Translations under genes and position numbers: made by a program | NCBI GenBank assembly: GCA_028711505.1 | Contig: JAQTSC010000001.1 | Location: forward strand, 56,447-120,446 | Source: Minisyncoccota bacterium | Lineage (GTDB): Bacteria > Patescibacteriota > Minisyncoccia > JAHISW01 > Tagabacteraceae | Direction: 5' to 3' | Length of the DNA stretch: 64,000 bases | Shown: positions 2,854-28,341 of the stretch, in pieces | Layout of the letters: each line of letters starts with the position of its first letter | Numbering within the stretch: the stretch's first letter is position 1 | The notes under the pieces: model-generated | Told to the model about the DNA's origin: nothing | Database searches by the model: none | What the model saw: the letters and a program-made list of their open reading frames with translations, nothing else

Positions 2854-3069
2854 CTGCGTATGCTCTTTATTTTATAGTATGGAAAATCGCTGTCAAAATT
2901 TTTTGATAATTTTGATTTGATTTTTTTGACTGCTCTGCCTTTTTTTGTTTTTTCATTATTAAGGGGGATTTTTTTGAGTTCACCTAATGGGGTCGAAATA
3001 GAAACAGGGGAAGTATAAAATTTTTATTGCAGATGAAAAAATAGAAAAGGAGAGCGAAGTTTTTTAACC

Positions 3070-3165: not shown

Positions 3166-4371
3166 ATGAAGCGTCAGTCGTCTACGTCTTTCGGGATGTG
3201 GCTTTCGCTTGTCGGAGTTTTTGCGGTTTTGGCATGCCTTTCTTTTGCTCAGGGGTGCACTACCCTTTTAACAGAGAAAGGCCGCGAGGAACGTGATTTG
3301 AATCTGAATTATAAAAAGGTGTTTGTCGCGGACGCCGGGATGAAAGCCTATTTCAACTGCCGTAAGGCGGGTGGAAGCAAGGAATTTTGCGAGGTTCGTT
3401 ACGGTGTCTATGATGACGGCGAAGGCGGATTTTTGCCGGACGCTGAAGGTTCATATAAGTCAACTTATTCACCGGTTTCTGGCGGTTCGGTAAATTCGGT
3501 AAACCATGTTTCCAGTCGCGCGGATATTCCCCCGGTAGAAAAACGCCACTATTTAAATATCGGCGGCGATCCAGTAAATCGTTATCGGAAACTTGGTGCG
3601 GATGAGACTTTAAGTTCTCTTCCTTATGACACCGAGGTTGTTTTAGAAGGTCGGAACAGAAATTCTACCGGGTGGATACGAGGCGGAACACCGGCTGTTT
3701 ATGGGCCGGATGGAAAACTACGCTGGATAAAAGCGTGCGGAAATGATGTTTTAAAAATTTTGCGGGATGCGCGGCCTTTGTCCGAACAAACCCCTGTCGT
3801 TGCAACAAAAAGAGAGGATGAAAGCAAAACTGTTTATAATCCTCCGTTCCAGTTTTTGCCGATGCCGAACCTTGGTATGGCATATCTGGATGCGCCGAGA
3901 GGAACGTGGCAAGGCAATTTGTGGGAGATGGTACCGAGAACTTACTTGGGCGCAAGCGCCAATTGGGTTTTTGGTTTGCCTGACACCAACTTCAACACTT
4001 CCGTGAACACTCAGACGGGTGTCGGAGTTAGCGCAACGGGAAGCGGCGCGGGAGCAGGCGGCGGAACAACAACGTCCGCGCCCACAACAACCACAAATAC
4101 CACTTCCAGTTCCAACTCCGGATATTCAAGCTCCAATACCAGTACTTATTATTATCAGTCGCTTCCAGGGCAAACTTCTGTCGTGGCAGGTGGCGGTCCG
4201 GTTGGCGGAGCTCCGGGAAATGCCGGTTCTGGCGCCGGAGCTCCGATTGGAGGCGCTCCTACTGTTATTGTAACAACGCCTTCCTCCGGGGTAGCAATTG
4301 GCGCCGGCGGTGCTGGCGGCGGTTTTGGTGGAACTGGCGTCGGCGGACCTGTTGGCGGCAATGCTCCTTAA
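3166..4371 (+). CDS. Secreted putative lipoprotein with a C-terminal Gly/Ala/Ser/Thr-rich low-complexity tail
   Basis: N-terminal signal peptide ending in the lipobox-like LSFAQGC. RBS GGGAGG sits 8 nt before ATG 3166 (the ORF track starts at an upstream GTG at 3157). The C-terminal ~130 aa are GAGAGGGTTTSAPTTTT... low complexity. The gene is visibly GC-richer than its neighbours. No catalytic motif recognised. Confidence 0.6.
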   Translation: MKRQSSTSFGMWLSLVGVFAVLACLSFAQGCTTLLTEKGREERDLNLNYKKVFVADAGMKAYFNCRKAGGSKEFCEVRYGVYDDGEGGFLPDAEGSYKSTYSPVSGGSVNSVNHVSSRADIPPVEKRHYLNIGGDPVNRYRKLGADETLSSLPYDTEVVLEGRNRNSTGWIRGGTPAVYGPDGKLRWIKACGNDVLKILRDARPLSEQTPVVATKREDESKTVYNPPFQFLPMPNLGMAYLDAPRGTWQGNLWEMVPRTYLGASANWVFGLPDTNFNTSVNTQTGVGVSATGSGAGAGGGTTTSAPTTTTNTTSSSNSGYSSSNTSTYYYQSLPGQTSVVAGGGPVGGAPGNAGSGAGAPIGGAPTVIVTTPSSGVAIGAGGAGGGFGGTGVGGPVGGNAP

Positions 4372-5997: not shown

Positions 5998-6036
5998 GCC
6001 CGCCGCCGTTTAAACGGCGGCGGACTTTTGTTTTTG
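5998..6036 (+). terminator. Rho-independent terminator
   Basis: GCCCGCCGCCG-TTTAAA-CGGCGGCGG stem followed by TTTTGTTTTT. Confidence 0.8.
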
Positions 6037-27021: not shown

Positions 27022-27046
27022 TTTTTGTATAGAAACCGATTTTTTC

Positions 27047-27076
27047 TTGCTGTTTTTGCCGAAGGGGCGTTATAAT
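27047..27076 (+). promoter_or_regulatory. Candidate promoter (TTGCTG - 18 nt - TATAAT)
   Basis: Consensus -10 TATAAT at 27071-27076 with a -35-like hexamer 18 nt upstream. Precedes two small ORFs. Confidence 0.4.
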
Positions 27077-27129
27077 TTTGGCAAGATTTTTCTTTGACAA
27101 AACTATTTTTGAAAGGAGATGTTGCTATT

Positions 27130-27324
27130 ATGATGATTGGTTTTTGTCAGAAAAAGAATCGAAATATTCCGGACAGAAAAGTTGAACATTATTGTTTTCC
27201 CTCGGGTTGTATCCAGCTTGTCATGAAGGCGACAAATCCTAAAGAACGAATAATCAAAAGGAATTTGCGGGACAATGGTAAGAATGGAAACGGGAATAGG
27301 AATGGCAAAAACGGATGCAGATGA
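27130..27324 (+). CDS. Candidate 64-aa small protein with Cys pairs and Asn/Gly-rich C-terminus (...GKNGNGNRNGKNGCR)
   Basis: RBS AGGAG 11 nt upstream of ATG 27130 (the ORF track extends it to a TTG at 27094). Within the promoter-terminator unit at 27047-27587. Confidence 0.25.
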   Translation: MMIGFCQKKNRNIPDRKVEHYCFPSGCIQLVMKATNPKERIIKRNLRDNGKNGNGNRNGKNGCR

Positions 27325-27355
27325 TTTTATTTTTGCGAGAAAGGAGGGGTAGAAA

Positions 27356-27514
27356 ATGGCGGAAGGAATTCCTTGCGTTTGTGTCGGTTGTCTGATGGCT
27401 GAAAAAGATGATTGCGACGAAGGAAAATTTGGCCTTTCTTTTAAAAACTGTACTAACGGCAAAGTGATTGAATGTGATCTGCGCATTCCCTTGCCGGAAG
27501 AAAAAGGAGCTTAG
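27356..27514 (+). CDS. Candidate 52-aa Cys-rich small protein (MAEGIPCVCVGCLMAEKDDCDEG...NCTNGKVIECD...)
   Basis: Strong RBS AAAGGAGGGG 7 nt upstream of ATG 27356; 7 Cys in 52 aa; terminator follows at 27541-27587. Confidence 0.35.
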   Translation: MAEGIPCVCVGCLMAEKDDCDEGKFGLSFKNCTNGKVIECDLRIPLPEEKGA

Positions 27515-27540
27515 CTAGTTTAGATGAAAAACAAAAAACA

Positions 27541-27587
27541 AAAGTCTTTCACGGCGTTCTTGCCATGAAAGACTTTTTCGTTTTTAA
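27541..27587 (+). terminator. Rho-independent terminator (AAAGTCTTTCACGG...CCATGAAAGACTTT + TTCGTTTTT)
   Basis: 14-bp stem and T-tract read directly. Confidence 0.7.
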
Positions 27588-27636
27588 TTAGAAGGAAGGG
27601 GAAAAATAATAATAAAAACTAATTTGACCCTAAACC

Positions 27637-27707
27637 TGCGGGGTCGTCTAGCGGTAGGACATCGCCCTTTGGAGGCGAGTACCTTGGTTCGAATCCAAGC
27701 CCCGCAG
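27637..27707 (+). tRNA. tRNA-Gln (anticodon TTG), CCA not encoded
   Basis: Manual cloverleaf. Acceptor TGCGGGG/CCCCGCA, D-arm GTCT..GGAC, anticodon stem TCGCC/GGCGA with loop CTTTGGA (U33, TTG, G37), T-arm CTTGG-TTCGAAT-CCAAG, discriminator G. Confidence 0.8.
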
Positions 27708-27734
27708 GTTTGCGGTCAAATTGTCGCGGGATCG

Positions 27735-27754
27735 CCTGCCTGCCGGCAGGCAGG
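27735..27754. repeat. Perfect 20-nt GC-rich palindrome CCTGCCTGCCGGCAGGCAGG
   Basis: Read directly. Sits between the tRNA-Gln and its truncated duplicate. Related copies lie at 46663-46683 and 46770-46790 inside uvrA. Confidence 0.7.
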
Positions 27755-27807
27755 TCTAGCGGTAGGACATCGCCCTTTGGAGGCGAGTATCTTGGTTCGA
27801 ATCCAAG
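27754..27807 (+). pseudogene. Truncated tRNA-Gln duplicate (D-arm to T-arm only, no acceptor stem)
   Basis: 54 nt identical, apart from one C>T, to the 27646-27699 core of the tRNA-Gln. The 5' flank (GGCAGGCAG) and 3' flank (TTCGATT) cannot pair. An 8-bp hairpin TTCGATTT...AAATCGAA follows. Confidence 0.55.
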
Positions 27808-27846
27808 TTCGATTTCTTTTCTGTAAATCGAATTGGCAAATAAAAC

Positions 27847-28341
27847 ATGAAAAATAATATCATTTTTAGAAAAGCAGAAATAAAAGATTTAAAAGACATC
27901 CTCAAATTAAATTTTGAATTATTCAAGAAAGAGCATAAAAAATTTGATAAGAGTTTGAATTTGGAATGGACATACAAAAATGGAAGAAAATATTTTAAGG
28001 ATCGCGTTACTAAAAAAGATGGTTTTGTGGAAGTTGTAAAAAACAATGATAAAACAGTCGGCTATCTGTGCGGCGGTATTTCAGAATTCTTGCCCTATCG
28101 AAAAAGGGCCAGATATGCAGAATTGGAAAATATGTTTATAGCAAAAGAATTCAGAGGAAAGAATTTGGGCGCCAAATTAACAAAAGATTTTATAAATTGG
28201 TGCAAGAAAAGTAAAATTGATTATATCTCCGTAAGAGCTTCTAGCCTAAATAAACCGGCATTGGGATTTTATAGAATTTTAGGGTTCAAAGACTACGATA
28301 CTATTTTAGAAATGAGATTGCTGAAAAGAAAAATTAAATAA
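27847..28341 (+). CDS. GNAT-family N-acetyltransferase
   Basis: 164 aa with an acetyl-CoA-binding motif region (IAKEFRGKNLGAKLTKDFINWCK...) typical of GNAT folds. Confidence 0.75.
   Translation: MKNNIIFRKAEIKDLKDILKLNFELFKKEHKKFDKSLNLEWTYKNGRKYFKDRVTKKDGFVEVVKNNDKTVGYLCGGISEFLPYRKRARYAELENMFIAKEFRGKNLGAKLTKDFINWCKKSKIDYISVRASSLNKPALGFYRILGFKDYDTILEMRLLKRKIK

Follow-up and report, generated by a model that had tools for sequence, protein, structure and literature searches.

A tRNA-Gln gene, its disrupted tandem copy and a recurrent 20-nt palindrome in a Minisyncoccota genome

In a 64,000-nucleotide (nt) stretch of contig JAQTSC010000001.1 from a Minisyncoccota bacterium (hereafter the window), we studied a locus in which an intact gene for tRNA-Gln(UUG), copy 1, is followed after a 17-nt spacer by a second, incomplete tRNA-Gln sequence, copy 2. 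The D arm of copy 2 is split by a perfect 20-nt palindrome that we term PAL, and a gene for a GNAT acetyltransferase follows downstream. The features on which the argument turns are given here in window coordinates. Loci used for comparison carry labels beginning with L, among them the Logan contig L001 and the locus L037, whose tRNA is the most similar to copy 1 among the relatives.

27637 to 27707, plus strand: copy 1, the intact tRNA-Gln(UUG) gene, found by ARAGORN and by Rfam RF00005 (61.6 bits, model positions 1-71), at the same site as the single tRNA-Gln downstream of dnaX in L033, L034, L037 and L038
27725 to 27734, plus strand: copy 2, tRNA positions 1-10 (CGCGGGATCG), comprising the 5' acceptor strand, positions 8-9 and G10; assigned by homology to copy 1 and L037, with the site fixed by the palindrome boundary
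27735 to 27754, no strand: PAL, the loop-less perfect palindrome CCTGCCTGCCGGCAGGCAGG, between G10 and U11 of copy 2; unique in the window and recurrent in viral contigs
27755 to 27807, plus strand: copy 2, tRNA positions 11-65, comprising the rest of the D arm, the anticodon arm (UUG), the variable loop GUAU and the T arm; matched by Rfam, with one mismatch to copy 1
27790, plus strand: the single core difference, T in copy 2 where copy 1 has C at 27682 (C48 to U); L037 and copy 1 both read GTAC here, and the T is also present in L001
27808 to 27832, plus strand: an AT-rich hairpin, TTCGATTT-N9-AAATCGAA, in place of the 3' acceptor strand and ahead of the GNAT start; read from the sequence and present in the predicted fold

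An intact tRNA-Gln gene and an interrupted copy

Across the window, ARAGORN calls a single tRNA, tRNA-Gln(ttg) at 27636-27708, and Rfam returns two matches to the tRNA family, one spanning copy 1 at full length and the other a local match to copy 2 (27753-27807; 40.3 bits against a gathering score of 29) that covers model positions 9-63 only. Copy 1 has a U1-A72 pair, G73 and a 4-nt variable loop, GUAC, and CCA is not encoded. The intact tRNA-Gln(TTG) named in an initial annotation of this DNA is thus borne out by both programs. That annotation had also described a 54-nt second tRNA core with one mismatch, and the two segments do align in this way, with 27754-27807 identical to 27646-27699 save for C27682 against T27790. 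The anticodon and T arms of copy 2 retain their conserved loops in the Rfam RF00005 match, and the D arm is interrupted by 20 nt between G10 and U11. The one substitution alters C48, the tertiary partner of G15; because L037 shares the variable loop of copy 1, T27790 is the derived state, acquired in copy 2.

Both halves of the acceptor stem had been thought to be missing from copy 2. We find instead that the 5' strand is present, within the 10-mer CGCGGGATCG that lies directly 5' of the palindrome (acceptor strand proper, 27725-27731), and that only the 3' strand and the discriminator are gone. This 10-mer matches copy 1 (TGCGGGGTCG) at 8 of 10 positions and the tRNA-Gln of L037 (TGCGGGATCG) at 9 of 10; at position 7, copy 2 and L037 both have A, whereas copy 1 has a G7-C66 pair. 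No plus-strand site in the whole 64 kb other than those of the two tRNAs agrees with the L037 10-mer at 9 or more positions, and 14 other sites among the 64,000 positions agree with the 10-mer of copy 1 at 8 or more. When every placement of a 20-nt gap was scored, removal of exactly the palindrome, or of a segment offset from it by 1 nt, gave the best identity to copy 1 (60/63). The 20-nt gap chosen by MAFFT follows position 1, a poorer solution over which explicit scoring favours removal of the palindrome.

At the other end, no strand complementary to the 5' acceptor strand follows the T stem, which runs directly into TTCGATTTC, part of the AT-rich hairpin. The T arm of copy 2 together with its T-rich tail (27791-27807) was scored as terminator-like by our scan. 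No copy of the tRNA-Gln 3' end was found elsewhere in the 64-kb window. ARAGORN does not accept the second tRNA either in its native form or with the palindrome removed in silico, and at an 80% threshold it yields malformed solutions only. The initial annotation had allowed that a valid acceptor stem drawn from non-adjacent sequence would make copy 2 a genuine gene; ARAGORN finds no such stem, and the 7-bp pairing on offer is at chance level. The candidate that we considered, GGGATCG (27728-27734) with CGATTTC (27810-27816) and the palindrome inserted at positions 8-9, needs a 2-nt bulge and draws on nucleotides whose homologues are tRNA positions 4-10; moreover, 44-65% of random controls form a helix of 7 bp or more. 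A permuted tRNA in which the palindrome serves as a closed acceptor helix was likewise rejected, having neither a free 3' end nor a junction motif. Copy 2 cannot form the acceptor/T-arm helix needed by RNase P, RNase Z and the CCA-adding and charging enzymes. With its clear homology and the loss of an essential part, it is best classed, as judged from its sequence, as a tRNA gene fragment or pseudogene.

The arrangement is also reflected in two Logan contigs from run SRR22315508, L001 and L002, both of which are 100% identical to the window. L002 ends inside copy 1 at 27675 (27645+30), as it should because a k=31 graph must branch where the core has two left neighbours, and L001, which begins inside copy 2 (27779), connects the T variant with the GNAT flank. 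The contigs therefore end as expected for branching, which indicates that the repeat is present in the reads.

The palindrome in viral contigs and in other tRNA genes

PAL is the sole match to its sequence in the 64-kb window at up to three mismatches, and none of 100 shuffles contains one, so that the perfect 20-nt palindrome reported at 27735-27754 holds up in a search of the whole window. Its placement is ambiguous by 1 nt owing to a G on both sides. Its length is only mildly unusual, as about 6% of mononucleotide shuffles of the window have a longest palindrome of at least 20 nt; the unusual part is its composition, 80% GC in a window of about 42% GC. The window holds another GC-rich perfect palindrome, CCGCCGCCGTTTAAACGGCGGCGG (24 nt, 6000-6023), which is followed by a T run and is an ordinary intrinsic terminator unrelated to PAL.

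The exact 20-mer recurs in IMG/VR viral contigs, where we found 42 copies in 35 stretches with unrelated flanks and a locus GC content of 0.38-0.68. Several of these contigs hold two to six copies. A control palindrome of identical composition, made by reversing the half-site, has no match in IMG/VR. The 16-nt core TGCCTGCCGGCAGGCA occurs 55 times in 44 stretches; the CC..GG ends are complete in 42 of the 55 copies and conservation stops there, and the unit is therefore 20 bp long with sharp boundaries. Half-sites separated by a spacer of 1-12 nt occur in only three stretches, and this dominance of the loop-less form argues against selection for a hairpin and would suit a site in duplex DNA better. 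All seven low-GC loci have PAL between open reading frames (ORFs) or within a tRNA. Matching sequences in Escherichia coli proved to be an unrelated hairpin, CCTGCC-AGTC-GGCAGG.

PAL is inherited in diverged relatives (L041 with L064, and L040 with L069) and has degenerate copies, with one to three mismatches, in several GC-rich contigs; judged from these sequences, both features argue that it is natural. Because the same sequence, with sharp ends, sits at dozens of unrelated non-coding phage sites, PAL appears to be a discrete 20-bp unit and not a by-product of the duplication in the window. No consistent target-site duplication or target motif was seen at the viral sites, and no enzyme common to the PAL-bearing loci was found, the only shared proteins being portal, terminase and capsid. 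A search for a PAL-free allele of L074 returned only L074 itself. Deleting PAL in silico restored no long ORFs, a test that is uninformative in GC-rich contigs.

Some viral copies lie in repetitive surroundings. In many GC-rich phage contigs (L040, L063, L048, L042, L061, L065 and L045) short direct repeats that resemble iterons (GGTGAGA, GGTGAAA, TCTCGTC and CGTATTT, among others) surround PAL, which suggests that these regions may be control regions of an origin or packaging type. L073 contains at least ten tandem 21-nt units, CCATGCCTACCGGCAGGCAGG, that resemble PAL with two mismatches (3916-4142, reaching the end of the stored stretch), in addition to one perfect PAL and three other variants.

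Among about 36 independent sites, PAL interrupts a tRNA three times independently, in copy 2 of the window, in L064 and in L071, far above the share of sequence that tRNAs occupy. In L064 it splits the variable loop of a phage tRNA-Met(CAT), AGG|TC, and ARAGORN and Rfam still recognise the gene and take PAL for a long extra (variable) arm. L041, a diverged relative of L064 from a different sample, has PAL at the same site with an adjoining 12-nt deletion, and L075, L076 and L077 carry the same tRNA-Met without PAL. The two kinds of allele differ by exactly 20 nt, and apart from a 3-nt ambiguity (AGG) the target is not duplicated. Presence and absence alleles of PAL thus exist both here (L064 and L041 against L075, L076 and L077) and in the window (copy 2 against copy 1). 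The tRNA gene of L071 (IMGVR_UViG_3300035537_000177, 478-1470, GC 0.42) is interrupted twice, by PAL in the D arm/loop, between GGTA and GAGC, and by a group I intron (RF00028, 86 bits) in the anticodon loop, with the 3' exon downstream; ARAGORN misses this gene. The ORF within the intron, an endonuclease, has a GIY-YIG-like N terminus by eye and a possible HNH motif.

Neighbouring genes and related loci

The remaining features at the locus are the arms that flank copy 1 and the downstream gene, the last of which is given for context only.

27621 to 27636, plus strand: 5' leader arm of a long inverted repeat that prolongs the tRNA-Gln acceptor stem; repeat search, predicted fold and an equivalent in L037
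27708 to 27722, plus strand: 3' trailer arm of the same leader/trailer repeat; repeat search and predicted fold
27847 to 28341, plus strand: GNAT acetyltransferase gene; Pfam Acetyltransf_1, E = 2.2e-13

Upstream of tRNA-Gln, the window carries in order GtrA, dnaX, 335 nt, and an orphan ORF of 52 amino acids with its own terminator. The five closest DnaX relatives in the protein collection share 72-77% amino acid identity. Four of them (L033, L034, L037 and L038) have a single tRNA-Gln(UUG) directly after dnaX, and L036 has one tRNA-Gln about 1 kb from dnaX on the opposite strand; neither a second tRNA match nor the palindrome was found in any of the five. GNAT homologues (65-72% identity) occur in four unrelated contexts with no tRNA upstream, no tRNA-like leader and no conserved neighbourhood. 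Because the dnaX relatives have a single tRNA-Gln and the GNAT homologues have none upstream, copy 2 is, on these comparisons, specific to the lineage of the window and not a conserved leader of the GNAT gene. The comparison with syntenic regions that the initial annotation had proposed therefore places both the second copy and the palindrome in the window alone among these loci. A search of 17 ORFs between 15.8 and 39.7 kb returned no Pfam match to an integrase or transposase family, so that none was found within about 11 kb; smaller ORFs and the remainder of the contig lay outside this search.

The region between dnaX and tRNA-Gln is enlarged in the window, with about 600 nt inserted (27022-27636) as against a gap of 0-45 nt in the relatives. 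The orphan ORF (27356-27514) lies in this insert; it is rich in Cys, has an AGGAGG ribosome-binding site and, being an orphan, was of no use for finding relatives. The insert also holds a 16-bp hairpin (27540-27577) that our scan scored as terminator-like on the minus strand, and a T-rich run follows it on the plus strand as well. Downstream of tRNA-Gln, the DNA differs in every dnaX relative. ORFs of the GIY-YIG type lie directly upstream of tRNA-Gln in L036 and about 2 kb from it in L034.

The inverted repeat around copy 1 has arms of 23 nt (27621-27643 and 27700-27722) that are 91% complementary, and the helix is present in the predicted minimum-energy fold. The extension of the acceptor stem in the window (27621-27636 with 27707-27722) is 16 bp long with one G-U pair and one mismatch; that of L037 (1355-1367 with 1438-1450) is 13 bp long and perfect. 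The proximal CCAAA/TTTGG is common to both, and the distal sequence differs yet stays paired. The extension is absent from L033, L034 and L038. The helix may serve as a stem for processing, or may have arisen through repeated rounds of fold-back copying.

No recognisable Shine-Dalgarno sequence precedes the GNAT start codon (27847), and the only promoter-like site nearby, TTGGCA-16-TAATAT at 27833-27860, overlaps it. Its mRNA may lack a leader, or the gene may be transcribed together with the tRNA region.

Outside the dnaX relatives, the loci L003-L020 are unrelated tRNA-Gln genes, and a tRNA-Gln pattern with a 4-nt variable loop retrieved five ordinary phage tRNA-Gln genes from the viral contigs. 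In L005 (Berkelbacteria PEVO01000038.1, about 3003-3050) the tRNA-Gln 3' end, CCATCCCCCGGAGCCA, is duplicated 20 nt downstream, a classical pattern of the attachment-site (att) type that is unlike the window; the related contigs L013, L015 and L018 have no extra 3'-end copy. In L036 (7020-7160, minus strand of the locus), part of the tRNA-Gln 3' end, CTGTTCGGCAGGGACTCGAA, is repeated in inverted orientation about 50 nt downstream of the gene.

Origin of the disrupted copy and of the palindrome

Taken together, the data make it probable that the locus consists of a working tRNA-Gln(UUG) gene and a dead tandem paralogue that was disabled by insertion of PAL, a recurrent 20-bp unit, and by the loss of its 3' end. 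This is the local duplication associated with a small palindromic insertion that the initial annotation had offered as one possibility, and two lines of evidence uphold it: copy 2 is paralogous to copy 1 over positions 1-65 with PAL as a clean 20-nt insert, and alleles with and without PAL exist in a phage tRNA. In the sequence of events that we envisage, tRNA-Gln would have been duplicated in tandem after the split from the L037 lineage, and the redundant copy would then have gained PAL and lost its 3' end, in either order. The 53-nt core would be nearly identical either because the duplication is recent or because gene conversion has acted on it; conversion would be halted on the 5' side of PAL, where the copies differ at 2 of 10 positions as against 1 of 53 in the core. 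As a best guess, PAL would have been inserted by a nuclease or transposase that acts in trans and deals with the palindrome in its double-stranded form. We expect copy 2 to have no cellular function.

Several points weigh against this account. The assignment of the 5' half rests on 8/10 matches, and an alternative gap that removes the first 20 nt still gives 57/63. Even the nearest relatives are distant, and the order in which duplication, insertion and truncation happened, like their timing, is therefore a reconstruction. The window holds one copy of PAL, and no candidate enzyme was found. The Logan contigs lack 27676-27778 and possibly derive from the same read set as the window. Finally, the exact 20-mer is missing from the 5,426 E. 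coli genomes, the isolate phages (2.3 Gb) and the plasmids (7.3 Gb) that we searched. All copies of PAL known to date therefore come from metagenome-derived data, and a technical origin retains some weight.

Such an origin, as an assembly chimera of two strain variants or as adapter or linker sequence, would account for the perfect conservation and sharp ends of PAL, for its restriction so far to metagenome-derived data and for the fact that the interior (27676-27778) is not covered by Logan contigs. We nevertheless regard it as hardly probable. The exact repeat stretches are only 36 and 17 nt long, below the k-mers and reads of the final assembly, and the Logan k=31 contig stops exactly where a second left context of the core must exist. 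Diverged relatives from different samples have inherited PAL itself, in one case with a 12-nt deletion as a secondary change; PAL also has degenerate copies in several contigs and, unlike a random artefact, avoids coding sequence in 7/7 AT-rich loci. Its sequence was not found in the literature searched, and it matches no adapter known to us. Integration of a mobile element is another source of partial tRNA copies, and the initial annotation had raised a remnant attachment-site duplication. The repeat would then be the remnant attL and attR of an integrative element that targeted tRNA-Gln. Integration into tRNA genes is common, every relative has different DNA downstream of tRNA-Gln, and 3'-end duplications exist at the tRNA-Gln loci of L005 and L036. 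Integration-derived tRNA fragments usually keep the 3' part of the tRNA, however, an origin that copy 2 does not fit; the duplicated segment comprises positions 1-65 and not the 3' end, and no matching 3' fragment lies elsewhere in the window. The intact gene also stands upstream of the fragment, whereas recombination with a partial copy carried by an element would produce the reverse order. The copies are only 17 nt apart with no element bracketed between them, and the 17 ORFs scanned contain no integrase. The att remnant is already largely refuted, and we give it very little credence.

Could copy 2 still be of use? As a tRNA-like RNA in the leader of the GNAT mRNA, consisting of the PAL hairpin with the anticodon and T arms, it might act as a processing signal, as a decoy for a tRNA-binding protein or as a regulator of GNAT. 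Its core is nearly unchanged (one difference in 54 nt), it lies 40 nt upstream of a GNAT start with no obvious Shine-Dalgarno sequence, the predicted fold of the region is more stable than that of shuffled sequence (z = -3.2), and some GNAT enzymes act on aminoacyl-tRNA. The high identity is explained equally well by recency or gene conversion, however, and the arrangement is not conserved, either upstream of the GNAT homologues in their four contexts or in the dnaX relatives, which lack the second copy. In addition, the single substitution weakens the G15-C48 tertiary pair, and RNase P or RNase Z has no acceptor helix to read. We therefore consider this role improbable. The idea that copy 2 mimics an RNase P/Z processing site upstream of GNAT, also from the initial annotation, draws no support from the sequence for two of these reasons, the missing acceptor helix and the four GNAT contexts without a tRNA-like leader. 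A genuine second tRNA gene, from which PAL is removed at the RNA level or which is split or permuted and completed by non-adjacent sequence, seems highly improbable. It is true that PAL also occurs in otherwise complete-looking tRNAs, that of L064 being accepted by ARAGORN and Rfam and that of L071 having both exons, and that one may draw a closed helix of 7 bp from the PAL half GCCTGCC/GGCAGGC directly 5' of positions 8-9. But copy 2 is without a free-ended 3' acceptor strand or discriminator, pairing between its leader and trailer is at chance level, no bulge-helix-bulge motif is evident by eye, and an intact copy lies next door. The endonuclease that splices such motifs is not known from bacteria.

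As a pseudogene, copy 2 resembles the partial or non-canonical tRNA gene fragments described in prokaryotes (van der Gulik et al. 2023, PMC9897764), in that it scores above the Rfam threshold, lacks parts needed for function and lies beside an intact gene. It differs from them in keeping positions 1-65, in following the intact gene after 17 nt with no element between, and in having a 20-bp palindrome inside.

PAL is harder to place. The REP/REPIN elements mobilised by RAYT, and similar sequences, are short GC-rich palindromes in non-coding DNA, sometimes several per genome, with degenerate variants and no target-site duplication, and in these respects PAL is alike. REPs are species-specific, usually 20-40 nt long with a loop and a flanking tetranucleotide, and present in tens to hundreds of copies per genome together with a RAYT gene. 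PAL, in contrast, is loop-less, identical across contigs of 38-68% GC and present once in the 64-kb window, and no RAYT or TnpA Y1 transposase was found among the proteins scanned (the 17 window ORFs and the proteins common to the PAL-bearing phage loci). The mobile GC clusters of yeast mitochondria (PMC4478555) and the hairpin-forming repeats of sponge mitochondria (PMC2800124) are likewise small, GC-rich, palindromic insertions spread over AT-rich genomes; they encode nothing themselves and are polymorphic for presence or absence among relatives. They differ from PAL in being organellar, about 30-60 nt long and members of diverged families, and are not known from bacteria or phages. By analogy, PAL would behave like both the REP-type elements and the mitochondrial GC clusters. 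We file it under neither, because it fails or cannot be placed on the copy number, transposase and length or loop that define them.

Other insertions into tRNA genes offer partial parallels. The disrupted tRNA genes of archaea and algae, with non-canonical introns or circular permutation (PMC3978253, PMC4033280), also have short inserts away from positions 37/38, including in the D arm and variable region, that are mobile between tRNA genes. These genes need a bulge-helix-bulge motif and a splicing endonuclease, whereas here no such motif is evident, nor an enzyme of this kind, although no search aimed at one was made in the 64 kb, and in copy 2 the 3' acceptor strand is missing altogether. 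Group I introns are a known feature of tRNA genes in Patescibacteria, which are frequent targets of selfish insertions in this phylum (PMC13011429, a paper in which the words palindrome and hairpin do not occur). The tRNA of L071 combines such an intron with PAL, but group I introns are self-splicing ribozymes of more than 200 nt, and PAL has 20 nt and no catalytic potential. We conclude that the PAL insertion unit is undescribed in the literature searched.

The pseudogene itself is ordinary and chiefly an annotation matter: because copy 2 lies above the Rfam tRNA gathering threshold, automated pipelines may annotate a second tRNA-Gln that does not work. The interesting part is the palindrome, a 20-mer that a Patescibacteria genome shares unchanged with dozens of unrelated phages, all uncultured, and that has sharp ends, avoids coding sequence and shows presence/absence alleles in a tRNA gene. 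Tentatively, and as a minority possibility in our own estimate, PAL may be an undescribed, ultra-small (20-bp, loop-less) mobile palindromic insertion that spreads across phages and Patescibacteria of very different base composition. It would land preferentially in non-coding DNA and in tRNA genes, where it would be tolerated as an extra arm or removed from the RNA, and the tRNA-Gln duplicate would be a casualty of this process or an instance of rescue by duplication. If this is true, PAL would be the smallest prokaryotic mobile unit known to us and would imply an unidentified inserting enzyme. If, moreover, the tRNAs that bear PAL are still functional, a further question would be how these RNAs tolerate an added 20-nt helix in the D arm or variable region, or how they lose it.

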